A stretch of DNA of 64,000 bases from Sulfurimonadaceae bacterium (GCA_041571435.1 JBFFUI010000003.1:32001-96000), one strand, 5' to 3'; shown: positions 11,025-24,079, counted from the stretch's first letter. The notes: generated from the letters alone by a model not told the origin. Program-made: numbers and translations.

Positions 11025-13158
11025 CCAGTAACGTCACCCTGTAGGCAATAAACGAAAGCACGTACGCCGTCACCGTCGTAAAGATAAAGAGATAGATAAA
11101 ATACTTGATGCCGCCCGCTTCGCGCGTAAAGACGATCGATGCCGCCAGACACGGCAGATAGATCATGACAAAGACGATAAAGGCAACCGCCGAAGCGAAG
11201 GGGATGTTCTTGCTGATGGCAGTGATGAGCGACTTGTCCGATACATCAATATCGTCACCTATGGCGTAGAGAACACCCAGTGTCGAGACCACGACCTCTT
11301 TGGCAGCCAGACCGGTCTGCAGCGCCACCGTCATCTTCCAGTCAAAACCGAGCGGCTCGAATGCCGGCTCCATAAACTTACCGATGCGGCCAAGGTAACT
11401 CAAGGCCAACTGCTCTTCTAAAAGCTTGTTATGCAGTGCCGACTTCGCCGCTGCACTCTCCGCCCTTTCGATCTTGTTGGCGTAGGATGTGACCACTTCA
11501 TCGTTATGCGGATAGGTGCTTAAAAACCAGACCAGGACCGTGGCCGCCGCAATGAACGTACCCGCTTTTTTGAGGTACATCCAGGTCTTTGTCACTACCG
11601 TATGCCAGATGAGTTTCAGTGACGGCAGACGATACTTGGGCATCTCCATCACAAACGGCTCATCCACCCCCTTGAAAGCGGTCATTTTCAAGATCTTTGC
11701 CGCAATCAGACCGATGACCGCACCGCTGATATAGATAGCAAAAAGGATGTTGCCTGCCGCGCTCTCAGCGAAAAAGGCCCCTGCAAAAAGGACATAGACC
11801 GGCAACCTTGCCCCACAGCTCATAAAGCCGATGATGAAAAGCGTCAACAGACGGTCACGGTCGTTTTTCAGGATACGCGCCGACATATACGCCGGAATAG
11901 AGCATCCAAACCCCGTTACCAGCGGGATAAACGACTGCCCGTGAAGACCGAACTTATGGAAAAAGCCATCAAGCAAAAAAGCAACGCGCGACATATATCC
12001 TGTTGCTTCCAACAGTGCGATCCCGATAAAGAGTATGACGATGTTCGGTACAAACATGACAACAGCGCCCACACCGGCGATAAGACCGTCGACAATCAGC
12101 GAGCGTGTCGATTCATGCGTAATCGTGTTGCCGACAACTCCGCCAAACCATCCGAAAAAGGCATCGATCCAATCCATCGGGATAGAACCGAGTTCAAAGG
12201 TAAGCTGAAAAAGCGACCACATAAAGAAGAGAAAGATCGGGATACCGAACAGCGGATGGATCAGTACGTTATCAATACGCTCTGTCATCGTCTGCTTTTT
12301 GATCGTCAGGTTTTTCTCATTCACCACTTCTGTGATGATACCGCGGTTGAACGCAGCATACTCTTCAGCAAATATCTCTTTGATATCTTCACTGTCGTGG
12401 TGCAATTCAATGTGTTTGTCCGCTTCGATCAACATTGGCTGCAGCTCGGTCCACAGCGGATTGTCATGCAGGACACGATAGGTTTTTTTCTCATTTTGCA
12501 GCAGATTGACCGCGATGTTTCGGTTGGAGATAGTCGCCTTGAAGCGGTGACGGTCAAGATACTCCTGTATGTTTGCGATCTCCTCCTCAACAGCTTCCGA
12601 AAAGATAAGCTTCGGCTCGACCAAAGGCGCCTCATGCACCTCTATGACTGCATCGATCAGCGCATCAAGACCGAGTTTCGAGACCGCAGAAACGGAGATC
12701 GCCGGCAGATCCAAAAGCTGTGACAGGTAGGGTGCATCGATCTCGATCCCCTCTTTTACAGCTTCATCACTCATGTTGAGCGCAAGGACCATCTTCTTGC
12801 TCATGGTCATCAGCTCTGCGGTCAGTTGCAGGTTCTTTTCCAGGTTCGTCGAATCGACTACGTTGATAATAAGGTCATACTCTTCATTGCAAAGGAAGTC
12901 ATGAGTCACCCGTTCTTCGATGGTATAATTGGTAAACGCATACGTCCCGGGTAGATCGACCACGGTAAAATGATACCCTTTATAGTCGAAAAGGACTTCC
13001 GTCTTTTCAACCGTTACACCGGTAAAGTTACCGACGTGGAGATGCGCATTGGAGATGGAGTTGATCAGCATGCTCTTGCCCACATTGGGCTGACCGACAA
13101 GAGCGATTTTGATATGATTGGCTATGACCGGACAGGCAGGACCTTTATTGTGCTGCAT
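11017..13158 (-). CDS. feoB: Ferrous iron transporter FeoB
   Basis: GQPNVGKS, GNFTGVTVEK, DLPG, LNMSDEA, GFGCSIP and MSCGARLPVY motifs. Confidence 0.98.
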   Translation of the reverse strand: MQHNKGPACPVIANHIKIALVGQPNVGKSMLINSISNAHLHVGNFTGVTVEKTEVLFDYKGYHFTVVDLPGTYAFTNYTIEERVTHDFLCNEEYDLIINVVDSTNLEKNLQLTAELMTMSKKMVLALNMSDEAVKEGIEIDAPYLSQLLDLPAISVSAVSKLGLDALIDAVIEVHEAPLVEPKLIFSEAVEEEIANIQEYLDRHRFKATISNRNIAVNLLQNEKKTYRVLHDNPLWTELQPMLIEADKHIELHHDSEDIKEIFAEEYAAFNRGIITEVVNEKNLTIKKQTMTERIDNVLIHPLFGIPIFLFFMWSLFQLTFELGSIPMDWIDAFFGWFGGVVGNTITHESTRSLIVDGLIAGVGAVVMFVPNIVILFIGIALLEATGYMSRVAFLLDGFFHKFGLHGQSFIPLVTGFGCSIPAYMSARILKNDRDRLLTLFIIGFMSCGARLPVYVLFAGAFFAESAAGNILFAIYISGAVIGLIAAKILKMTAFKGVDEPFVMEMPKYRLPSLKLIWHTVVTKTWMYLKKAGTFIAAATVLVWFLSTYPHNDEVVTSYANKIERAESAAAKSALHNKLLEEQLALSYLGRIGKFMEPAFEPLGFDWKMTVALQTGLAAKEVVVSTLGVLYAIGDDIDVSDKSLITAISKNIPFASAVAFIVFVMIYLPCLAASIVFTREAGGIKYFIYLFIFTTVTAYVLSFIAYRVTLLVI

Positions 13159-13387
13159 TCTCTACCTCGATCAGATCCGCCTCTTCTTTGCGAAGGGCCA
13201 AACGCATCTTGCCCACCTTGACCTCAACAGTACTTTTACGCGCTGAATATTCCAGCATCGTAACGGTCGCCCCTTTCATAATGCCGAAAGAGACCAATCG
13301 CTGTTTTAACGGACCGCTTGCATGAAGCTTCGTAATCGTCGTCTCACACCCTTTCGGGCAATTTGTCAATATGTTCATTGTAATCAT
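13145..13387 (-). CDS. feoA: FeoA
   Basis: LKQRLVSFGIMKG...LALRKEEA; overlaps the feoB start. Confidence 0.92.
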   Translation of the reverse strand: MITMNILTNCPKGCETTITKLHASGPLKQRLVSFGIMKGATVTMLEYSARKSTVEVKVGKMRLALRKEEADLIEVENAAQ

Positions 13388-13402
13388 TTATTTAATTTCC
13401 CG

Positions 13403-13455
13403 TAATGATAATAAAAATCAAGTTAATATCGGTTAAAAATGATAATCTAATCGCA
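13403..13455. promoter_or_regulatory. Two Fur-box-like sites upstream of feoAB
   Basis: TAATGATAATAAAAATCAA (13403-13421) and AAATGATAATCTAATCGCA (13437-13455) resemble the GATAATGATAATCATTATC consensus. Confidence 0.7.
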
Positions 13456-13682
13456 TAATCAAGCGTTCTAAGTCACGCCGTTCATGATTATCTGCACTGC
13501 CTCAGCCGATGGGACAAAAGATCGTCTCAAAACACCAGCTGTCAGGATTATTTTTATATCGATGCACCCTTTTGGATCAAACATCATCAACATGCACATT
13601 ATCGAAAAATCTGCACTTTTATCTTTCTTCTTTTCTCTATCAGCTTTTTGCTATAATACCGCTCTCAAACATAAGGATCTAA

Positions 13683-14240
13683 ATGAACTTTCTCTACCGT
13701 GCTGACAATCATTTTAACTTAGCCAACATGTTCACTTTCGGCAATCTTACAAGCGGTTTAATCGCGATGTACCTTGCGACACAGGGCAATTATGTCTGGG
13801 CAGTTGTCTTTTTATGGATCGGCGGCGGCTTTGACATCTTTGACGGTAAGATGGCACGAAAATACGGTCTCTCCAATGAATTCGGTATTCAGCTTGACTC
13901 CTATGCTGACTTTCTGTCATTCGTTTTGACCCCCGTCTTTATTATCTTCATCTCGATTATCAACCAGCCGGATGTCTCGTCATTCTCATTTGCACTGGGT
14001 GTTGCGATCTCGCTCTACTACATCATAAGCGGTCTTCGCCGTCTGATACAGTTCAACATAAACGCCGAGGAGGGAGAGGTCGAAGAGTACTTTACAGGAC
14101 TGCCGACACCGATGGGCGCTATCGTCTTATGGCTTATTTTTTTAGGCGGCCTCTATATTTACCCTGCTTTCATTACCGTTGCATTGATGGCGGTAACAGG
14201 CTGGCTGCTTAACTCAACAGTTAAGATCAAGCACCTTTAA
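13683..14240 (+). CDS. pssA: CDP-alcohol phosphatidyltransferase (phosphatidylserine synthase-like)
   Basis: DIFDGKMARKY...FGIQLDSYAD motif, FTGLPTP; TGCTATAAT and AAGGA upstream. Confidence 0.8.
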   Translation: MNFLYRADNHFNLANMFTFGNLTSGLIAMYLATQGNYVWAVVFLWIGGGFDIFDGKMARKYGLSNEFGIQLDSYADFLSFVLTPVFIIFISIINQPDVSSFSFALGVAISLYYIISGLRRLIQFNINAEEGEVEEYFTGLPTPMGAIVLWLIFLGGLYIYPAFITVALMAVTGWLLNSTVKIKHL

Positions 14241-14307
14241 GAGATAGACTTTTTCGCACTTACTGCGAAAGCCGATACGCATCAACCACAACGCTATAGA
14301 CACTTCT

Positions 14308-14406
14308 ATGACCAAGCAAAACGACCTTATCTTCCTCGGAGACAGCCTTACCGCCTTTCCGACTGGTCGGTATCAGGTCTGCAAGTTTATAGTCAAGGAC
14401 GAATAG
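14308..14406 (+). pseudogene. GDSL/SGNH hydrolase 5' remnant
   Basis: Reads MTKQNDLIFLGDSLTAF, continues as DWS in a shifted frame, then decays into AT-rich sequence. Confidence 0.55.
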
Positions 14407-14632
14407 TTTATAGATCATTAAAAAAAAGTTGTAAAAGTGAGTGCTATCAGCGCACTTCTGTATAGATAATTAGAGGACTTTACAGCTTTTTTACTTTATG
14501 GTTGTTCATCTGTCTATTCTAGCATTGTTGCATTACGTAAGGGTTACATTCATAAAGGGTATCGCTTGACAGGCATCGCAGATAACAGTAGCGTAAGATT
14601 GTATTTGTGGAGGTCTAGAATCTACTCACTCC

Positions 14633-16543
14633 CTATTTTGCGACTTGTTGTTCCTGCTCAATTTTTTCTATCATCTTTTTTGCGCTACGGTTCTGCGGGT
14701 CCAGGCTCAACACTTTCTTATATTCGCTTAACGCGATATCTCTCTTGTCTGCACGATAATACGATCGTGCATATGCCAGACGTGTTGTGATGTCCGAAGG
14801 GTTCTGTGCAAGAAGCTGCTCCAGAATCTCAATTGCCTTGTCATGTTTTTGCAGTGCACTGTAGGTTTTTGCCAGCGCCCGGTACGCTTTGTCATCTTCA
14901 GGTTCCAGTTCCACCGCTTTTTTAAGCGCATCACGGGACTGTTCATACTCTTTTTGCCGGTAATAGACCAGACCGATGTTGAACCATGCCTTGAAATAGC
15001 TGCTGTCTTCCTCGAGGATCTCTTCATAGAGCACCTGCGCCTTGTCATACTCTTTGAGCTTGGTGTAACACACCGCCAGATCAAGTTTGACGTGGACTGC
15101 ATCCGGCGTAAGTTGAAGCACTTTCAGATAGGCATCGACAGCCTGACGGTACTGCTCTTTATGCATGAACAGATCGGCAAGCTCTAGATACGCCTCACCA
15201 TAGTCCGGGTGAAGACGGATCGCCTGCTTTAAAAAACCTTCTGACTCCGCATAGGATGATTGCTGTAGCGACAGGACACCGAGGTTGTAGTATGTCTCAG
15301 AATTGTTTCGCTGCATCTTCAACGCTTTTTCATAGGCTAGTTTTGCATCTTTAAAACGCTCCATCTTGACATACAAAAGGCCCATTTTGTTCCATAATTC
15401 TGCACTGCCTTCGCCTGTAAGTGCCACGACAATGTTATAAGTATCGAGCGCTGCAGCATACGACTCCTGTCTGGAATAAAGATCACCGAGGTACTGATAG
15501 GCCTTGGCATTGGAAGCATCAATGGTCAAAATATTTTCAAGCGCAGCAATAGCTTCCTGGTTTTTTTTCAGGCGTATCAGCAGTTCTATCACTTCAAACT
15601 GAAGTTCAACATCATCAGGCTCATGCAACAGTGCCTGCTGCAGAGTCCGTAATGCTTTGGAAGCCTTGTTCTTGGCCAAATAAACTTTGGCTATAGCGCG
15701 ATATACCTCAATGTTTTCAGGTTCAAGATCGCGCATCACCTCCAACTCCTCCAAACGTTTTTGATATCCCTCTTCATCCTGAGGATACTTCAGTTCCAGC
15801 AGGGCCAAACGGGCGCCAACGTGATCAGGTTTCAGTCGGATCGCTGCCGTAAAAGCGGCGGCAGCTTCTTCCTTTTTCGGCGGCGAGACCAGAAGATAGC
15901 TTTCGCCCAGCATATAGAGCGCCTTGGCCTTGATATTTCCACCGCTCAGGCCGGCTGTACGTTCAAACTCTTCAGCTGCCGCATCGTACTCGTCATGTTT
16001 ATAATAAAGCAGCCCAAGGTTGAAATGGCTCTTTGCGTGGGCATCAAAAAAACGGATCACCTCTTTGTAATCTGCCACGGCTTTGTCATACGCATTCAAA
16101 GCGCTGTAAGCGATCGCCCGGTTATAACGGGCTTTATAATAGCGTGCGTTGATCTTCAGGGCATTGGAGAATGAAACAACGGCCTTGTCATATTTTTTTT
16201 GTTTGAGATAGAGCATTCCCAGCCAGTTGTGGATCTGCGCGGAAGGCTCCTTCACCAAAATACTGAAGTAAATGTTTTCCGCTTCCGTCAGCTTCCCCTT
16301 CGCTATCAGTGCCTCGGCCTGCGCAATACGGGGGTCATCACTGAAATCGACTTCGGCCACGTTATTCATATCATTTTTACTGTTCTCGTCTACAGAGGTC
16401 TGTGCCGTGATGTGAATATGGTGTGCCAATTCCGCATCCTGACTTGCACGGTACTGCACAAAAAGAAGCACCAGAAAAATAGCACTCAACAGCAAAATAA
16501 CGGGGATGATGCTCTCGGTGATCCTATGCGTACCTATTCGCAA
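14633..16543 (-). CDS. Membrane-anchored multi-TPR protein
   Basis: N-terminal TM, then more than 10 TPR units (A.YNLG.LY...A...F..A); TTG start with AGGAG RBS. Confidence 0.9.
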   Translation of the reverse strand: MRIGTHRITESIIPVILLLSAIFLVLLFVQYRASQDAELAHHIHITAQTSVDENSKNDMNNVAEVDFSDDPRIAQAEALIAKGKLTEAENIYFSILVKEPSAQIHNWLGMLYLKQKKYDKAVVSFSNALKINARYYKARYNRAIAYSALNAYDKAVADYKEVIRFFDAHAKSHFNLGLLYYKHDEYDAAAEEFERTAGLSGGNIKAKALYMLGESYLLVSPPKKEEAAAAFTAAIRLKPDHVGARLALLELKYPQDEEGYQKRLEELEVMRDLEPENIEVYRAIAKVYLAKNKASKALRTLQQALLHEPDDVELQFEVIELLIRLKKNQEAIAALENILTIDASNAKAYQYLGDLYSRQESYAAALDTYNIVVALTGEGSAELWNKMGLLYVKMERFKDAKLAYEKALKMQRNNSETYYNLGVLSLQQSSYAESEGFLKQAIRLHPDYGEAYLELADLFMHKEQYRQAVDAYLKVLQLTPDAVHVKLDLAVCYTKLKEYDKAQVLYEEILEEDSSYFKAWFNIGLVYYRQKEYEQSRDALKKAVELEPEDDKAYRALAKTYSALQKHDKAIEILEQLLAQNPSDITTRLAYARSYYRADKRDIALSEYKKVLSLDPQNRSAKKMIEKIEQEQQVAK

Positions 16544-17445
16544 TCCGGGCTCCTTTTGTCAATGATCGAGAGAGGCTCGCGCATTCCCTCGCCGGCAATA
16601 TTCTGGATCTCTATACCCGGTCTGGCGTTTACTTCAAGTATGACCGGACCGCGCTCACTTAGGGCAATGTCGATGCCCAGGTAATCGAGAGGAATCACCT
16701 CTGCCGCCGCTTTACATAGCTCAAGCAGCTCCTCCCAAAAGGGGATCTTGACATTCAGGAGTACCACACCGGTATCGGGATGCGATGTTATATCCTCCCT
16801 TCCGATCCTTGCAGACGATGTATATCCCGTCGCCAAATCGATTGCCACACCGATACCGCCTTGATGGAGGTTCGCCCTCCCATCAGAGGCGATCGTCGCA
16901 ATACGCAACATCGCTTTTACGTTCTTGCCCCTGTAGTTGATCATCCTGACATCTGCCAGACCGTGCGGACTCAATGACGAGATACCCTGATCCTGCACGA
17001 TCTTCTCTTCAATAATGGCGGTATCGTTCATATCGAACGAATAGACGCCGAAGATGATGTCAGCAATATGTTTTTTGATATCTTCCAGGCTATAGATCTT
17101 GCCGCTGACGGAGATCCACTCCTCCTCTTTTCGCTCAGCGATGACGATAATCCCCTTACCGCCACTGCCCGAAGCGGGTTTGATCACAAAACTCTCCACC
17201 CCTTGCAGCGACGCTTCCAGTTGCGTCAGTTCATAGAAATAGCTGATGGTCAGGTAGGTTTTCGGTACCCGAAGGTTTGCTGCTTCCAGGGTCTTTTTTG
17301 TCAAGAGTTTGTTGTTGGCGAATTCAAAATAGCGGCGTTTGTTGCTCGGATAGATATATCCGAGATTGCGGCGATTCATCCCCAGCACCTTGTCGGCATG
17401 GCGCATATTGGCATTGAGCCGTGAAAAAAAGTGTCTGAACCACAT
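16534..17445 (-). CDS. Alpha-L-glutamate ligase-like ATP-grasp protein (RimK-related)
   Basis: VLGMNRRN, NNKLLTK, FVIKPASGSGGKGI, GLADVR, GRANLHQGGIGV, YLGIDI and LEVNARPG motifs. ATG 17445 overlaps the upstream TAA. Confidence 0.9.
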   Translation of the reverse strand: MWFRHFFSRLNANMRHADKVLGMNRRNLGYIYPSNKRRYFEFANNKLLTKKTLEAANLRVPKTYLTISYFYELTQLEASLQGVESFVIKPASGSGGKGIIVIAERKEEEWISVSGKIYSLEDIKKHIADIIFGVYSFDMNDTAIIEEKIVQDQGISSLSPHGLADVRMINYRGKNVKAMLRIATIASDGRANLHQGGIGVAIDLATGYTSSARIGREDITSHPDTGVVLLNVKIPFWEELLELCKAAAEVIPLDYLGIDIALSERGPVILEVNARPGIEIQNIAGEGMREPLSIIDKRSPDCE

Positions 17446-19052
17446 TATCTTTTCTCCCTGAATATCAGTGTCCGGAAACGAATGAGCTCGGAGACGCGCA
17501 TACCGACCCATTTGCCGAGCCAGAGATTCAGCACGATCAAAAAGAGCAGCAGTTCCGGGAAGGCGATGATCAGACTCTGCATGAAAAGCGAGCTCATGAC
17601 GGCGTAAGCCGCAATGATCACGATCGCTGAAAAAAACGAAATACGCAGCGCTTTTGTCAACCCCTGTTCCTCCTGAATGATCCCAAAACGCTCCGCCGTG
17701 ATCGCAAGGATCGCGATCGGAAAGAGCGAGATGTGTGCCAAAGAAAGCAGCGATGAGTGCACGGAAAATACCGTCATCAGCAACATAGAGACAACGACGA
17801 CGGTCAGCATAATGGCCATTTTAGGCGAGTGCAGTAGCTGCAGATAATCCAGAAACTTTCGAACCACTGCCGAAACGAGGATAATAAAAAAGAAGCCGGC
17901 AAGTCCCCACCAGATCCCTGTATCACGGGCTGCCGTGGCGATCAGTGCCGGCAGAAAGGTACCGAAGGTCTCAAGTCCGATGACATTTCTGAAGATGACG
18001 ACGACCAGCGCTCCCAGAGGGATCATCAAGATGATCTTTAGCAGGTTTTGCGAGATCCCAATGCTCTCGAAGATCTTGTACATGTTATAGGCATTGAGCG
18101 GCGAGGCGTACATCGCCTCTTTCATCTCTTTGCGCGGTACCAGCTTTTTGGTAATATGAAACATATACTGAAAATTGATGTTGGTCGTATGTCTGAACAG
18201 GCCCTTATCCCCGTAGTAGAGCCGCACATAGTTTTTGGGGATCTCTGCAAAATAGTTGTTGATCGTGTCAAACGGTATCCAGTGGCCGCGAACATAGACT
18301 TCGACCCACTGGTGGGAGGTCTTTTTGCTGCCCTGGTTAAGAATAAGACCGCCTACCAGGCGCGACGGCAGACCAAGCTTGCGCGCCAATGCCACAAATA
18401 GACGGCTCTTGCCGTTACAGCTGGCCTCTTTGAGCTTCAATGCGGTCAAGGCGTCGGTATACCCGGAGAAATTTCGGTTTTGAAACTCGTTTTGCAGGTA
18501 GTTGTGAATGGTATATAGCGCCTCATAGGTATCCGGTTCTTTGTTGCCGAAAAGCTCTGTGATCGTCTGTTCAATAAGGGGGTCATTGACCTGTATCCCC
18601 TCTTCCTGACCCAGGTAGATAGAGAGATAATCCGGCAGCTCTTTTGCGATAGAGATGTTTCTATCGATATCGTAGATGACGTGTTCGGCCTGAACAAAAT
18701 AGTTGTAACGAATAATATGGGTACCCGAGACCGAAGGTGCTTTCCATGAAGCCATGCGATTGAGCCCCTCAACACTGATCTGTGTTGTAAAGATGTCGGG
18801 TGCACTCCGCTCTTCGGAGATGTTTTGATGCGCCGTACTGATCGGAAGGTAGGTGTAGATGGACATGCTGTCACCGTGGCCGCTGACCTGCATGTTAACT
18901 TCCACATCGTACCCGATGGTCGGAATCAGGTCGGCAAGTTCATACTCCAGTACAAACAGTTTATAACCCATCAGAGAAAAGGTTGTCAGCAGGAGAATAA
19001 AAAGTGTCAACCTGTAGATGACACTAGCTGTTTTCATACCGAACATGGGCAA
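17445..19052 (-). CDS. 7TM membrane protein with transglutaminase-like domain (intact Cys-His-Asp)
   Basis: N-terminal TM; ASCNGKSRLFVALAR..GLPSRLVGG and HQWVEVY..G.WIPFD; C-terminal 7TM with IGLETFGTFLPALIA, LFPIAIL.ITAER and GKWVGMRVSE. True start may be 19046 or 19037. Confidence 0.88.
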   Translation of the reverse strand: MPMFGMKTASVIYRLTLFILLLTTFSLMGYKLFVLEYELADLIPTIGYDVEVNMQVSGHGDSMSIYTYLPISTAHQNISEERSAPDIFTTQISVEGLNRMASWKAPSVSGTHIIRYNYFVQAEHVIYDIDRNISIAKELPDYLSIYLGQEEGIQVNDPLIEQTITELFGNKEPDTYEALYTIHNYLQNEFQNRNFSGYTDALTALKLKEASCNGKSRLFVALARKLGLPSRLVGGLILNQGSKKTSHQWVEVYVRGHWIPFDTINNYFAEIPKNYVRLYYGDKGLFRHTTNINFQYMFHITKKLVPRKEMKEAMYASPLNAYNMYKIFESIGISQNLLKIILMIPLGALVVVIFRNVIGLETFGTFLPALIATAARDTGIWWGLAGFFFIILVSAVVRKFLDYLQLLHSPKMAIMLTVVVVSMLLMTVFSVHSSLLSLAHISLFPIAILAITAERFGIIQEEQGLTKALRISFFSAIVIIAAYAVMSSLFMQSLIIAFPELLLFLIVLNLWLGKWVGMRVSELIRFRTLIFREKR

Positions 19053-19108: not shown

Positions 19109-19477
19109 TTAAAAGATCGTTTGCAGCAGGTCGGTATAGACCACAACATAGAGCAAAACCGCCTGAAGCAACGCAATAAACCAGAACATCATCTGAAAGC
19201 TGCGCTTTGTCGTCTTATGCCAAAAAAGCTGCTGTGCGAAGATGGCGGCAGGGGTCGCCCCTGCAAAGGCCAACAGGTGGAGCAGACTTTCCGGTACCCT
19301 CAGCCAACTGCGCTTTGCATAAAACTTGTCAAGCGCATACATGACAAATCCGGCACTGTTGACAGTTGCGATATAGGCCCAGACCGGTTGGAGATGCATG
19401 CGAAACCTAAACAGAAAAAAGAAAAGGGCCAAAAGCATAAAGCTCAGTACGGCATAGCGTATAAAAGCTCTGCTCAC
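19109..19477 (-). CDS. DUF1294 family membrane protein
   Basis: YALDKFYAKR.WLRVPESLLHLLAFAG..PAA.FAQQLFWHKTTK.SF motif. Confidence 0.88.
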   Translation of the reverse strand: MSRAFIRYAVLSFMLLALFFFLFRFRMHLQPVWAYIATVNSAGFVMYALDKFYAKRSWLRVPESLLHLLAFAGATPAAIFAQQLFWHKTTKRSFQMMFWFIALLQAVLLYVVVYTDLLQTIF

Positions 19478-19794: not shown

Positions 19795-20484
19795 TTGCAA
19801 AAAGAACTGCTTAAAGACCTCAGGATCCTCTATGTTGAAGATGAAGAGGATGTCCGCCGCAGTGCGGTCGAATACTTAAAACGTATCGCCAAAGAGGTAT
19901 ATGAGGCTGGTGACGGCAAAGAGGCCATCCAAGTCTGGCTCCAGGAAAAACCCGACATCATCATCACCGATATCAGCATGCCCCGTCTCAACGGTCTCGA
20001 CATGGCGCGTTACATCCGCTCAAAAGACCGGGATGTGCAGATCATCGTCGCAACGGCCTATACCGACACCGACTACCTCATGCAAGCCGTTGAACTCAAC
20101 CTGGTCAAGTACCTTGTCAAACCCGTTACCAAAGAGAAACTCCAAAATGCTCTCAGCCACTCTGTAGAGAAGATAAAAGATGAAAACAAATTCTCTGTCC
20201 GACTCTCGCCTGAGTGCCAATATAATGCCTACAGCCAACATGTAGAGTGCGGAGACGAGCAGACCAAGCTGACAAAAAACGAGATCCTCTTCATGGATCT
20301 TCTGGCCCACCATGTCAACCGGACCCTCACCTACCAGGAGATCGAAGATGCCATCTGGCCTTATGAGGGGATGAGCCAAGACGCGATCCGCTCCCTGGTC
20401 CGCGGTCTCCGAAAAAAACTTCCCGACGGTGCGATCGACAATGTCTCCGGTGTCGGCTACCGCCTGCAGGTCTACACACTCTAG
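19795..20484 (+). CDS. OmpR-family response regulator
   Basis: YVEDE, TDISMPRLNG, YLVKP and winged-helix C-terminus NVSGVGY. Confidence 0.93.
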   Translation: MQKELLKDLRILYVEDEEDVRRSAVEYLKRIAKEVYEAGDGKEAIQVWLQEKPDIIITDISMPRLNGLDMARYIRSKDRDVQIIVATAYTDTDYLMQAVELNLVKYLVKPVTKEKLQNALSHSVEKIKDENKFSVRLSPECQYNAYSQHVECGDEQTKLTKNEILFMDLLAHHVNRTLTYQEIEDAIWPYEGMSQDAIRSLVRGLRKKLPDGAIDNVSGVGYRLQVYTL

Positions 20485-20555
20485 TACGCATCCTTGCACC
20501 CTTTTAAGCAGAATTCATCTAAAATTCTATCTATCCACTCCATAAGGAAGCACCA

Positions 20556-21092
20556 TTGAAAGCCAGAACAACCCTGATTTTTTTAACACTGAGTCTATTT
20601 ACCAACCTTCTCTACGCTGATGCCATTTTAAATATAGATCAGCCGGTAAGAAATCTGAAAGTCAGCAGCGATCAGATGAAAAATGCCATTGTCAGCGCTG
20701 CAGAGGAGCAGAGATGGATCGTCACGTCGGAAGGCGAAGGGCGGATGAGCGCGACCTATCACCGCTCCAACTATATGGCCAAGATCTCTATCAGGTACGC
20801 ACCTACTTTCTACACCATCAACTATGCCGACTCAAAGCGTCTGCGTTACACCGGGACAAGCATTCATCCGACCTACAACAAGCTCATCAAAGCACTGCAG
20901 ATAAACATCATCCGTAACCTGAAGAGCGGTGACTTCACTGAGAAGAGTGATACCGAGACGGATACGACACCGGTTGATGGTGAAGGTGATGTCCGTACAA
21001 AACTGATCGACCTCAAACAACTTTATGAAGACGGATTGATCAGTCAGGACGAGTACGATGCAAAACGCAAGGCTATAATCGACTCATATTAA
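20556..21092 (+). CDS. Exported protein with C-terminal SHOCT domain
   Basis: Signal peptide; YTINYADSKRLRY...IHPTYNKLI; C-terminal KLIDLKQLYEDGLISQDEYDAKRKAII. Confidence 0.75.
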   Translation: MKARTTLIFLTLSLFTNLLYADAILNIDQPVRNLKVSSDQMKNAIVSAAEEQRWIVTSEGEGRMSATYHRSNYMAKISIRYAPTFYTINYADSKRLRYTGTSIHPTYNKLIKALQINIIRNLKSGDFTEKSDTETDTTPVDGEGDVRTKLIDLKQLYEDGLISQDEYDAKRKAIIDSY

Positions 21093-21133
21093 AAATTGTG
21101 TAGAATAACCCTAAAATTGTCCAAGGAAACAAC

Positions 21134-21832
21134 ATGAATAAACTTAAAGTTCTCGCACTCTCACTGCTCTTGGCCGCGCCGATGGTCATCAATGCAGCGG
21201 GTATGGGCCTCTATGTGCCTGTCAGTTTTGCCAACAGCAGTTCTGTCACCAAGAACTATGATACAGACTTGATTCCCGACCAGGACGTTGATATTGACTA
21301 TAAACCGTCGGCAGGGTTCGGTATCACCTTTGATTCCAACATCGGTAAAGATGCTCTGTTCAACTACCGCTTGGGTCTGGAGTTGATGCAACAGACGATG
21401 GATACGGTCAACGGCGACCCCTGTACAGGTGAGTGTGAAAACGCAAGGTTCAACATGCTCCACACCTTCGGGTTCGGCGTTCTACGCACTCAGAGAGTCA
21501 GACTCTGGGTCGGGCCGAGGATCAACATTGCGTACGAATGGGATACGGGCGATTATGGCTATTCTCGCGGCGGGGTTGAATTTGGTATTGCACCGGCAGT
21601 CGGTGTGAATGTCAACCTTGAGCGCGTCGTCTCGCTCGCAGCAGATATCGACTACAAGGTAGCGGCGACTGTCGGCGGATGGGACAGCAATATCCCATTT
21701 GACGGCGGCAGTTATTCAGGTTCGACCACAGGTCCTACTGCACGTTTCTACGTTCTCTTCAGATTCGGTGAGCAGTTTCAAAAGCCGGCACCGCAATCTG
21801 CAAACCAAGCTGTGATCGACCAGAGTCTTTAA
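21134..21832 (+). CDS. Outer-membrane beta-barrel protein, paralog 1
   Basis: Signal peptide; alternating amphipathic strands (FNYRLGLE, HTFGFGV, RLWVGPRINI, ARFYVLFRFG). Confidence 0.8.
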   Translation: MNKLKVLALSLLLAAPMVINAAGMGLYVPVSFANSSSVTKNYDTDLIPDQDVDIDYKPSAGFGITFDSNIGKDALFNYRLGLELMQQTMDTVNGDPCTGECENARFNMLHTFGFGVLRTQRVRLWVGPRINIAYEWDTGDYGYSRGGVEFGIAPAVGVNVNLERVVSLAADIDYKVAATVGGWDSNIPFDGGSYSGSTTGPTARFYVLFRFGEQFQKPAPQSANQAVIDQSL

Positions 21833-21840
21833 TCTCTTAA

Positions 21841-21869
21841 AGAGCGGCCTTTTCAGACCGCTCTTTTTT
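21841..21869 (+). terminator. Rho-independent terminator
   Basis: AGAGCGG...CCGCTCT followed by a T-tract. Confidence 0.8.
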
Positions 21870-22000
21870 CCCTTCATATCATACTCATCACATTCCTATT
21901 TTAAACATAACAAATTCAGCATACTATTACTCCTTCTAATATTCTTTCCTGTATTATAGAATGTTAAAAATATCGTTGCGTACACATCCAAGGAGTTAAA

Positions 22001-22699
22001 ATGAACACAATGAAAAAAATGGCGCTCTCACTTCTGTTGACAGTCCCAATGGTCGCGAGTGCAGCCGGTATGGGTGTTTATATCCCGTTCAACATCACTG
22101 AAAACGAAGAGATCGAGTATGATTCGTTGTTTACAGGTACATATGACCATGAATACAAGCCTAGTGCCGGCTTCGGTCTTGCTTTTGACACCAACATCGG
22201 AAAGGACAGTCTCTTCAATTACCGCTTGGGACTGGAATATTCCCACGCAGAGCTGGACAACTTAAATGGGAACACGCTTCCATCTGGTACCGAATATACC
22301 AAAGATAAATACAACATGGTCCATACTTTCGGTTTCGGTGTACTCCGTAAAGAAAAAGTGCGGCTCTGGGTCGGACCACGTATCAATATCCAGCTTGAAA
22401 GCGGTGAGTTCTCAAGTAGCTCAGGCACTATTTGGACGCAAGACAGTGTTGGTTTGGGTCTCGGTCTGGCTGGCGGTGTCAACGTAAACCTGGGCCGTGT
22501 CGTCTCTCTTGCTGCAGATTTAGACTATCATGCTGTTGCAATTTCAGGTACAGAAGACAGTGCCCTGTATTCCGTCAACTATTCTGGTGTTAACAGCGGG
22601 GTTACCGCCCGTTTCTACCTCCTGTTCCGTTTCGGCGAGACGTTCCGAGAACCAGTACCGCAAGCTGCTAACCAAGGCCTTATCGACCCAAGTCTTTAA
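22001..22699 (+). CDS. Outer-membrane beta-barrel protein, paralog 2
   Basis: Same conserved strands as paralog 1; AGGAG RBS. Confidence 0.8.
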   Translation: MNTMKKMALSLLLTVPMVASAAGMGVYIPFNITENEEIEYDSLFTGTYDHEYKPSAGFGLAFDTNIGKDSLFNYRLGLEYSHAELDNLNGNTLPSGTEYTKDKYNMVHTFGFGVLRKEKVRLWVGPRINIQLESGEFSSSSGTIWTQDSVGLGLGLAGGVNVNLGRVVSLAADLDYHAVAISGTEDSALYSVNYSGVNSGVTARFYLLFRFGETFREPVPQAANQGLIDPSL

Positions 22700-22707
22700 G
22701 CGCTCAA

Positions 22708-22735
22708 AGCGGCCGCTTTGGGCCGCTCTCTTTTT
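22708..22735 (+). terminator. Rho-independent terminator
   Basis: AGCGGCC-GCTTTG-GGCCGCT followed by CTCTTTTT. Confidence 0.75.
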
Positions 22736-22846
22736 CAAAAAACAGATATCCTTGTCCCCTTTTCACAAGGTCATCGACACACCATTCTTCAGAAACATAT
22801 CAAGTAAAAGCACCTATACTATTGTAACTCACATCCAAGGATACAC

Positions 22847-23344
22847 ATGAAGTTCTTACAAACACTGGTCATTATTGCTGCAATTGTCTTCTTCTCTGCC
22901 TGCGGTGGCAGCCGTGCTCCTAAAGTTGTCCCGGCAACGCCTGTCAACAACTCTGTTCCGGCTGCACAGAGTGAAAAAGAGTTGCACGACAATATTGTAC
23001 TGCTTGCCAAATACAAAAAGTATCAGATCCTTAGTGACGACGCAAAGAACAAGATGCGTATCAAGTATGACCGTATGTATACGGACAAACAGACAAAGGA
23101 GGTCAAACTCCACTCAAGCATCACCTATGATGTGAAGAACACCGCCAATGACTATACCTTCTCTTATGTAGACAGTACAAACCTTGGATACAACGATGTC
23201 AATATCAGCAGTACCTATACGCGTTATATCAACATGTTTGACACTGCTTTAAAACGCATGTATAACGACCCTGTCTATCTCGAACGTATGCGCAACATCG
23301 TGGCTGGTAAAAATCCGGATGGTACTGAAAAGGCACCAAAATAA
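22847..23344 (+). CDS. Lipoprotein related to 20556..21092
   Basis: Lipobox FFSA-C; YTFSYVDSTNLGY..VNISSTYTRYI aligns with the YTINYADSKRLRY..TSIHPTYNKLI motif. Confidence 0.75.
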   Translation: MKFLQTLVIIAAIVFFSACGGSRAPKVVPATPVNNSVPAAQSEKELHDNIVLLAKYKKYQILSDDAKNKMRIKYDRMYTDKQTKEVKLHSSITYDVKNTANDYTFSYVDSTNLGYNDVNISSTYTRYINMFDTALKRMYNDPVYLERMRNIVAGKNPDGTEKAPK

Positions 23345-23374
23345 CAGTCTCCGCTAATCGTAAGGAAAAATGCC

Positions 23375-24079
23375 ATGACTAAAAAAATATTTTTTTCCTG
23401 CGGCATTTTCTTTCCGCTCTTCTTGCATGCGGTGGGCATGGGGGTCAGTGTGCCGATCACGTTCTATGAAAAAGAGAAGCTCAGCTACAGTACCTCTGAC
23501 ATCTCCACTACGACATACTACTACGAACCTCACAGCGGGGTAGGTTTTGTGTTCGATAGCAATGTCGGTCAGGACAAGACCTTCAATTACCGTTTCAACT
23601 TTGAGTACTCCATCGCCGACATCGAATCCAGCAGCCGTCTCTACTCCAGCAACTTGCGAAAACACAAGTTTAATTTTGTAAACACCTTCGGTTTTGGTGT
23701 CATACAGGAGAGATATCTGCGTTTTTGGGTCGGGCCGCGTATCAATATCCAATACGAACACACCTCGAGTGACTCCAATATCAGGGCACAGAACAGTTAC
23801 GGCATCGGCCTTGCTGCAGCAGCCGGTCTTAACGTCATCTTGGCAGAGCGCTTATCGTTAGCATTCGATGTCGATTATCACGGGACACTGCTGTTCGGCG
23901 GAGAGAGTTATCGGGATTATGACGGGACTACAACCGGTGATGTCACACACTACAGCGGCTACATCGGTACCAATAGAGACTTTACGGTACGCCTCTACCT
24001 GCTGTTTGTCTTCGGCGAGCAGTATGAGCAGAACGCAGTGACGCCTGAAGAGAACTCTGTCATCGATTACAGCCTGTAA
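23375..24079 (+). CDS. Outer-membrane beta-barrel protein, paralog 3
   Basis: GMGVSVP, FDSNVGQDKTFNYR, NTFGFGV, FWVGPRINI and RLYLLFVFGE; ends IDYSL. Confidence 0.8.
   Translation: MTKKIFFSCGIFFPLFLHAVGMGVSVPITFYEKEKLSYSTSDISTTTYYYEPHSGVGFVFDSNVGQDKTFNYRFNFEYSIADIESSSRLYSSNLRKHKFNFVNTFGFGVIQERYLRFWVGPRINIQYEHTSSDSNIRAQNSYGIGLAAAAGLNVILAERLSLAFDVDYHGTLLFGGESYRDYDGTTTGDVTHYSGYIGTNRDFTVRLYLLFVFGEQYEQNAVTPEENSVIDYSL

Follow-up and report, generated by a model that had tools for sequence, protein, structure and literature searches.

An active-triad transglutaminase-7TM, ATP-grasp ligase and TPR gene cassette in a Sulfurimonadaceae bacterium, a widespread but unstudied relative of the Pseudomonas Rlo system

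Gene organization of the locus

The window analysed here is a 64,000-nucleotide stretch from the genome of a Sulfurimonadaceae bacterium (GCA_041571435.1, JBFFUI010000003.1:32001-96000), and the locus in question is a set of three minus-strand genes within it, which a first-pass annotation made from the sequence alone had singled out as a candidate peptide-polymer or tagging system. The first gene (17445..19052) encodes a 535-amino acid (aa) membrane protein, TG-7TM, in which a transglutaminase-like (TG) domain is joined to a seven-transmembrane (7TM) domain (PF01841 and PF14402). The second (16534..17445) encodes an ATP-grasp ligase similar to RloC and RimK, 303 aa long when counted from the ATG at 17445 (PF14397), and the third (14633..16543) a 636-aa tetratricopeptide repeat (TPR) protein with matches to TPR families and a single transmembrane (TM) anchor. 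The overlap of the three genes noted by the annotation was recovered exactly, with all three open reading frames (ORFs) at these positions.

The TAA stop codon of the TG-7TM gene shares its last base with the ATG at 17445, which opens the 303-aa ligase. The longest ligase ORF is 16534-17511 (325 aa), and its ATG at 17511 would overlap the TG-7TM gene by 67 nucleotides (nt); the ligases of the relatives are 303 aa long, which supports the start at 17445. The TPR gene starts with a TTG at 16543, preceded by AAGGAG and overlapping the end of the ligase gene by 10 nt. The three genes are translationally coupled. A promoter and terminator scan of the locus returned 7 promoters, against 7.6 expected from shuffled sequence, and nothing usable.

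The transglutaminase-7TM protein

TG-7TM begins with a TM helix, which is followed by a beta-sandwich and a transglutaminase-like domain, both predicted to be periplasmic (Transglut_core, PF01841, 2.8e-21, residues 169-262), the 7TM domain (7TM_transglut, PF14402, 5.6e-50, residues 300-529) and a K/R-rich C-terminal tail. Its top NCBIfam match is the RloB model NF052267, with 144.4 bits against a cut-off of 900; by this score it falls outside the RloB equivalogs. The protein contains the motifs ASCNGKSR, HQWVEVY and WIPFD, and C212, H247 and D262 are invariant across 12 homologues, the source names of which span several phyla. In a profile alignment these three residues coincide with the Cys, His and Asp of a putative cysteine protease from Cytophaga hutchinsonii (PDB 3ISR). 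The full transglutaminase triad that had been proposed for the protein is upheld by the motifs, the invariance and the alignment together.

An AlphaFold2 model built from 84 sequences (predicted local distance difference test, pLDDT, 94.3; predicted template modelling score, pTM, 0.85) places residues 45-306, comprising the beta-sandwich and the TG core, closest to 3ISR, with a Z of 24.5 and a root-mean-square deviation of 2.9 over 253 residues. The animal transglutaminases factor XIII and TG2 match the model with Z 9-10, and LapG, PeiW/PeiP and the periplasmic domain of TgpA with Z 8.5-9.1. Foldseek matches covered the TG domain only. In the fold search with the whole model the best helical matches were RnfE/NqrE-like (Z 8-9), and the 7TM domain folded alone (pLDDT 80.6) matched ABCB9 best, with a Z of 8.6 that lies in the noise range for helical bundles. 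The fold assignment for this domain was therefore dropped, which does not prove that its fold is new. Both the active and the RloB-type branches of the family keep several motifs of this domain, among them RNxxGxxTFGTFxP and an E-R pair.

The ligase and the TPR protein

The ligase matches ATPgrasp_ST (PF14397, 1.4e-70), and its top NCBIfam match is TIGR02291, 'alpha-L-glutamate ligase-like', with 270.5 bits, just below the cut-off of 314.2; on the RimK-family model TIGR00768 it scores 57.2 bits, under the cut-off of 143.4. The columns that are hallmarks of the ATP-grasp fold (K89, GSGG, NLHQGG and D259/E271/N273) are conserved, and the protein is 36-40% identical to the ligases of RloABC-type loci. 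Among solved ligases, the RimK poly-alpha-glutamate ligases are nearest, with cyanophycin synthetase and TTLL7 next; these are all ligases that polymerise amino acids.

The TPR protein matches many TPR families (TPR_1, 5.2e-58) and has one hydrophobic segment, residues 11-29; its N-terminal tail and anchor are conserved, including the columns E10, S11 and P14. A complex prediction for TPR residues 30-636 with TG-domain residues 36-335 (score 0.01, mark 0.32) counts neither for nor against a contact between the two.

Pfam matches reveal natural TG-7TM-ATP-grasp fusions in six database proteins (P0150, P0152, P0158, P0165, P0225 and P0247) and in one further locus (L138), with the fused ligase at the C-terminus of the 7TM domain. 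A 1558-aa protein (P0156) continues from TG-7TM through the ligase into TPR repeats, with a hydrophobic helix (797-815) between ligase and repeats. An ATP-dependent ligase must be cytoplasmic, therefore the C-terminus of the 7TM domain should lie inside and the TG domain and the TPR repeats outside. The C-terminal tail of the window protein, with 7 K/R among its last 24 residues, fits this orientation. The topology assumed at the outset, with TG domain and TPR repeats outside and ligase inside, thus agrees with the fusions and the hydrophobic segments. A cytoplasmic ligase of polymerase type, as its sequence predicts, is physically tied to the conserved 7TM domain.

Conservation of the cassette and a fourth gene

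Of 7998 candidates scored in a word-indexed protein search, 1372 reached E <= 0.001. All of the best 120 carry PF14402 and PF01841, and for several of the best matches the NCBI name is 'UUP1 family membrane protein'. Species-representative genomes, when scanned, yielded 323 stretches with a relative, of which 77 loci were kept; the pattern used to retrieve them included the catalytic-Cys motif, hence these loci are triad-bearing by selection. Their TG-7TM proteins are 55-96% identical to that of the window. By record taxonomy, 57 loci belong to Pseudomonadota (16 to Gallionellaceae and 3 to Mariprofundales), 9 to Campylobacterota, 5 to Nitrospirota and 2 to Thermodesulfobacteriota, while 3 are filed under Myxococcota and 1 has no phylum. 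Gallionellaceae, Mariprofundales, Sulfurimonadaceae and Thiohalomonadales, rich in iron or sulfur oxidisers, are among the cassette-bearing lineages, as are Nitrospirota.

Every ORF of the 77 loci was scored with the window proteins and a profile of the fourth gene described below. In all 74 loci that extend 300 nt or more downstream, the ligase gene comes next after the TG-7TM gene, and in all 67 that extend 1400 nt or more the TPR gene comes after it, so that the conserved TPR neighbour anticipated by the annotation proved to be a constant one. The window has the same order as the clade, TG-7TM, ligase and TPR protein of ~635 aa, and the trio is a tightly conserved cassette. A gene of ~400 codons follows the TPR gene in 59 of the 61 loci with at least 3300 nt downstream. 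Its product starts with a signal-peptide-like segment, contains a GLGYDSNPY motif and ends in an aromatic residue; 8 of 26 members match Pfam BBP2_2 and all other matches are to outer-membrane barrel families. The profile had no match in the PDB at E <= 1. This modest evidence points to a putative outer-membrane barrel.

The partners also accompany a sister clade (P0125-P0171, L147-L226) in which Cys replaces the catalytic Asp (Cys-His-Cys). Among the 80 loci found in a metagenome scan for this form, the ligase, separate or fused, follows in 53 of 60 testable loci, and a TPR gene in 44 of 46, 4 of which have no ligase. The barrel profile (C3-type) matches 3 of 29 sister-clade loci. Varied genes for secreted proteins or lipoproteins follow instead of the barrel gene in this clade.

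Triad state, peptidase and TPR partner

The annotation had stated that this ATP-grasp family is normally found with an inactive TG-7TM protein and a retropepsin, and had proposed that retention of the triad goes with loss of the peptidase and gain of the TPR gene. The usual set is that of RloABC, as excerpts of Lormand et al. (mBio 2025, PMC12239564) describe it, and of most of the proteins we sampled from Gammaproteobacteria. PF14402 occurs in 74 of the 400 genomes of this sample, a tally that includes the unpublished G150 and G317, neither of which contributed a locus to the set below. We fetched 32 loci, 20 chosen by hand from ~60 high-scoring matches and 12 with mostly lower scores, which gave 31 TG-7TM proteins. 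The full triad is missing from 28 of these, including all those in RloABC-type loci, and Cys-His-Asp is kept in none of the 28. Each of the 28 fetched loci has a RimB/RloA-like match and none has a TPR or barrel match; in 23 the order is peptidase, TG-7TM, ligase, and two of the sampled peptidases score best on RloA models. The remaining three proteins keep Cys-His-Asp, and their loci have the TPR gene (3/3) and no peptidase (0/3). The proposed correlation therefore holds throughout the loci tested (28/28 versus 3/3). The peptidase gene, said by the annotation to be replaced by the TPR gene, is indeed absent from the window locus, and no RimB-like retropepsin gene was found in any of the 77 related loci. 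In five genomes with an active cassette, from five lineages, no PF05618 gene was found.

The genome of the window has a single PF05618 gene, located on another contig, the product of which matches RimB best, lacks a hydrophobic N-terminus and adjoins a true RimK (365 bits on NF007764, cut-off 331). On that contig (C15 of G000; L001, 2-1944) the RimB-like retropepsin gene (152 aa), the true RimK gene and a succinylglutamate-desuccinylase/aspartoacylase-like gene stand in a row. The genome therefore holds a cytoplasmic Rim pair in addition to the Rlo-like cassette.

The triad was surveyed across the family in the 150 best representatives of 50%-identity clusters together with the query. In 53 of these 151 proteins the triad is Cys-His-Asp and in 28 it is Cys-His-Cys; in the others it is degenerate or incomplete. 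A FastTree phylogeny of 143 proteins splits in two parts with a support of 100: 60 of the 65 rows of the first are triad-less and all sampled proteins from RloABC-type loci belong to it, while 66 of the 78 rows of the second are active. Well-supported branches force at least 11 changes of triad state, thus a single origin of triad loss is rejected. The root is a midpoint root only, by which the order of events is not fixed; the active form is probably ancestral, because regain of a lost triad is implausible.

Loss of the barrel gene from the window genome

The putative barrel gene is missing from the window, and comparison with a close relative (G001, TG-7TM 96% identical) suggests how it was lost. 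The order in the relative is TG-7TM, ligase, TPR, a second intact TG-7TM, a second TPR, the barrel and a convergent GDSL-lipase gene. Past the TPR gene, the window DNA can be aligned with the beginning of the second TG-7TM gene as far as ~14360-14370, and from there with the 5' end of the GDSL-lipase gene. The junction lies at 14360-14370, where both flanks have CCGACCAGTCG in common, and from its alignment with the relative ~5.1 kb are missing from the window. As read from this alignment, one deletion of ~5.1 kb removed the barrel gene, the second TG-7TM/TPR pair and most of the GDSL-lipase gene, leaving scars at 14308-14489. These are a decayed 5' remnant of the second TG-7TM paralogue on the minus strand (14365..14489; ~first 44 codons in two frames, found by tblastn with the intact G001 paralogue, the DNA match being 80% identical), and a 5' remnant of ~21 codons of the GDSL-lipase gene on the plus strand (14308..14370), recognized from the sequence in a three-way alignment with both flanks of the relative. 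The GDSL Pfam match was obtained on the intact homologue of another locus (L004).

Contigs of four runs of one study bridge the junction without differences, one run possibly being the source of the window itself. The barrel profile had no match in the whole genome of the window (marker-gene completeness 100%) or in those of two related loci (L004 and L006), while both positive controls were detected.

The loss raises the question of whether the three remaining genes are a functionless, decaying remnant here after the barrel and the second pair had gone. The scar with its two truncated genes, present in the contigs of all four runs, is what such decay could leave behind. The three ORFs are nevertheless intact over 4.4 kb, whereas the neighbouring TG-7TM remnant is already out of frame, and the two other barrel-less genomes keep an intact trio. 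The ratios of nonsynonymous to synonymous substitution (dN/dS) relative to G001 are 0.047 for TG-7TM, 0.119 for the ligase and 0.103 for the TPR gene, in or near the range of four flanking genes (0.009-0.064), although these values average the whole divergence from the relative and not just the time since the deletion. The cassette genes are, on these ratios, judged to be under purifying selection, and decay is a very unlikely account of them. What the deletion does imply is that any product should stay in the periplasm or envelope of this bacterium. The persistence of barrel-less trios moreover suggests that the periplasm or envelope may be the real site of action and release an add-on.

Extra pairs of TG-7TM and TPR genes without a ligase of their own occur in three Sulfurimonadaceae loci (L003, L005 and L007, ~11500-15100) and in metagenome loci L167, L169, L173 and L176. 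In the three Sulfurimonadaceae loci the extra pair comes after the first trio and before the barrel, an arrangement that suggests a single ligase for two membrane modules. Relative to G001 (window 16534-19052 versus L082), dS is 0.63 for the ligase and 0.41 for TG-7TM, and 0.18-0.27 for the TPR gene and the four flanking genes. The raised values hint at recombination or gene conversion with a paralogous pair.

Comparison with known systems

In the excerpts of Lormand et al. (PMC12239564), the retropepsin RloA of Pseudomonas aeruginosa is secreted and cleaves polyglutamate in vitro, RloB is a 7TM protein with an inactive TG domain, and RloC is an ATP-grasp protein. Deletion of rloB or rloC suppresses the hypo-osmotic lethality of a triple rloA (rloA1-3) mutant, and rlo mutants are altered in cell shape and beta-lactam sensitivity. 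Excerpts of a Shewanella transposon study tie an inactive-TG 7TM gene to membrane-vesicle output. The cassette is like RloABC in the 7TM_transglut family, the ATP-grasp subfamily, the order of TG-7TM before ligase and the predicted periplasmic location of the TG domain. It differs in its intact triad, lost in RloB-type proteins, in the absence of the secreted retropepsin, and in the addition of the TM-anchored TPR protein and, in relatives, of the outer-membrane barrel. With RimK-RimB, the poly-alpha-glutamate ligase that acts on ribosomal protein S6 and its retropepsin, it has in common a related ATP-grasp ligase (28% identity to the genome's own RimK), however the cassette ligase lacks the RimK N-terminal domain in the alignment and is coupled to a membrane protein. 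3ISR, LapG, PeiW/PeiP and TgpA have the fold and the Cys-His-Asp triad in common with the TG domain, 3ISR the N-terminal beta-sandwich as well, but none of them is fused to this 7TM domain or encoded with an ATP-grasp ligase, and identities are 10-17%.

Synthase-dependent exopolysaccharide secretion is exemplified by AlgK-AlgE, BcsC, PgaA and PelB-PelC. The cassette would parallel these systems in having a cytoplasmic polymerising enzyme on an inner-membrane platform, a periplasmic TPR protein and a barrel encoded last. The differences are that the cassette has no glycosyltransferase, its amino-acid ligase would polymerise instead, and a TM helix holds its TPR protein in the inner membrane; no glycosyltransferase family was found in Pfam scans covering the locus and the genes around it. 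The analogy with AlgK and BcsC, drawn in the annotation, gains from the barrel gene of the relatives, which it had missed, but that gene has been deleted from the genome at hand. CapBCAD/PgsBCA make poly-gamma-glutamate at the membrane independently of the ribosome and anchor or release it by an enzyme on the periplasmic side, with a Mur-ligase-like synthetase and a gamma-glutamyl transpeptidase. A likeness to them would be in concept only, since the enzyme families differ and no homology turned up in any of our searches.

The locus had also been ranked as the best candidate for an undescribed system in the window. It is unstudied, yet the family is large and already has a name in the database. 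Reportedly, to judge from reference lists, the ATP-grasp/7TM/inactive-TG neighbourhood was first described by Iyer et al. in 2009. The excerpts and reports that we searched, a set to which that account does not belong, contain no description of the active-triad, TPR-linked variant, and the searches returned no paper on the 'UUP1 family' or under the Pfam and TIGRFAM identifiers of the family.

Proposed function

The cassette is related to the Rlo stress system of Pseudomonas and is widespread, though unstudied; as predicted from its sequence, it is a conserved, selected and envelope-spanning gene set with an intact periplasmic Cys-His-Asp domain. We propose, at about an even chance, that these genes make up the core of an Rlo-type system of the cell envelope, in the form with an active enzyme, and that this system makes, moves and processes a peptide product that is probably rich in Glu. 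The RimK/RloC-like ligase would work at the cytoplasmic side of the 7TM domain, where it would assemble a short product of acidic character. This would probably be an oligo- or polypeptide rich in Glu, or a peptide tail borne by a carrier, and the 7TM domain would pass it to the periplasm. There the TG-like domain would process it in cis, by hydrolysis or transpeptidation, as RloA may do in trans in Pseudomonas; the TPR protein, for the annotation a candidate scaffold or acceptor, would receive the product and, in relatives, hand it on to the barrel for release.

Sequence cannot decide between trimming and attachment at the TG-domain step. In a different account of this step, which corresponds to the attachment option of the annotation, the domain is a true transglutaminase or transpeptidase that attaches the ligase-made peptide covalently to peptidoglycan, a lipoprotein or the TPR protein. 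The acyl-transfer triad is intact and common to the cross-linking transglutaminases factor XIII and TG2; the trios without a barrel in three genomes and in most sister-clade loci fit a product retained in the envelope. The changes in cell shape and beta-lactam sensitivity of rlo mutants, reported in the excerpted parts of Lormand et al. (PMC12239564), also speak for this account. On the other hand, the closest structure, 3ISR, is annotated as a putative cysteine protease, and hydrolases make up the other prokaryotic TG-fold matches (LapG, a periplasmic protease, and PeiW and PeiP, which are pseudomurein endoisopeptidases). The exact complementarity with the peptidase points to hydrolysis as the common job, and no acceptor was identified. 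Covalent tagging is a rather improbable account.

The 7TM step is where an account without any exported polymer departs from ours. Here the membrane protein would be an envelope protease or sensor of the LapG/LapD or TgpA kind, with the 7TM domain regulating a ligase that modifies a cytoplasmic protein or makes a small solute. TgpA is indeed a membrane-anchored periplasmic TG domain without any ligase, the 7TM fold resembles no known transporter, and in the excerpts of Lormand et al. (PMC12239564) the known RimK target is a ribosomal protein and the Rlo phenotypes are osmotic. The same excerpts state that no genome-encoded polyglutamate substrates were found, which speaks against this account, and it leaves unexplained the near-universal periplasmic TPR partner and the barrel, as well as the triple fusion that threads the ligase between two membrane-crossing parts. 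We consider it distinctly unlikely.

Several points weigh against the Rlo-type system that we propose. No family member, RloBC included, has a known product, substrate or activity. The relation between triad, peptidase and TPR gene is striking but not a statistical proof, because the loci are phylogenetically related and partly hand-picked. Assembly of the triad is predicted from alignment and fold match; the ranking of solved ligases came from a profile that held the genome's own RimK as 1 of its 40 rows; and a transport role of the 7TM domain is a conjecture, because no solved structure resembles this domain convincingly (best Z 8.6). For the barrel, the assignment is based on weak Pfam matches, signal peptides and C-terminal aromatic residues, with no PDB match. 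Finally, the barrel is missing here, in two related genomes and in most sister-clade loci, therefore release from the cell cannot be a general requirement.

A bolder and, on balance, unlikely extension would make the cassette an undescribed, ribosome-independent Gram-negative secretion route, in which an ATP-grasp ligase on a new type of 7TM translocon spins out an acidic peptide polymer that a built-in cysteine transpeptidase cuts or anchors and a TPR-barrel conduit releases. The clade is concentrated in iron- and sulfur-oxidising lineages, where such a polymer might form a matrix that binds metals or prevents encrustation, or might provide fixed charge in the periplasm.

In Pseudomonas, RloBC is of importance for biofilm formation and for tolerance of osmotic stress and beta-lactams, and the active form shows what the inactive form outsourced: the periplasmic step is present in cis (Cys-His-Asp) or in trans (retropepsin), and none of the loci examined has both. 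The first architectural argument for a product that leaves the cytoplasm comes from the TPR and barrel genes together with the fusions. The cassette is present in non-pathogenic lithotrophs, including a complete Sulfurimonas chromosome (L010), which offers a clean route to the product of the whole family.

Neighbouring genes and strain variation

Two neighbours were considered as parts of the system and rejected, as they recur in close relatives only: a DUF1294 gene upstream (19109-19477) and a divergent response-regulator gene. The region divergent from the cassette (19795-24079) encodes an OmpR-type response regulator, a SHOCT-domain protein, a 165-aa ORF and three ORFs of ~232 aa; the latter four have no Pfam match. 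Since the counterparts of the three ~232-aa ORFs group with one another in L003-L007, these three are apparently paralogues. The response-regulator set, after which relatives have a dCache histidine kinase, is conserved among close Sulfurimonadaceae only.

A gene for a lipoprotein-like protein of ~600 aa with weak YfiO/TPR-like matches lies directly upstream of TG-7TM in 13 related loci (e.g., L013, 593-2368, and L017, 2459-4279). These are some of the gamma- and betaproteobacterial loci, and the gene is absent from the window. Contigs of three runs (X1, X2 and X4) carry linked variants at 14807-15033, in the 3' part of the TPR gene, which implies that at least two strains coexist.

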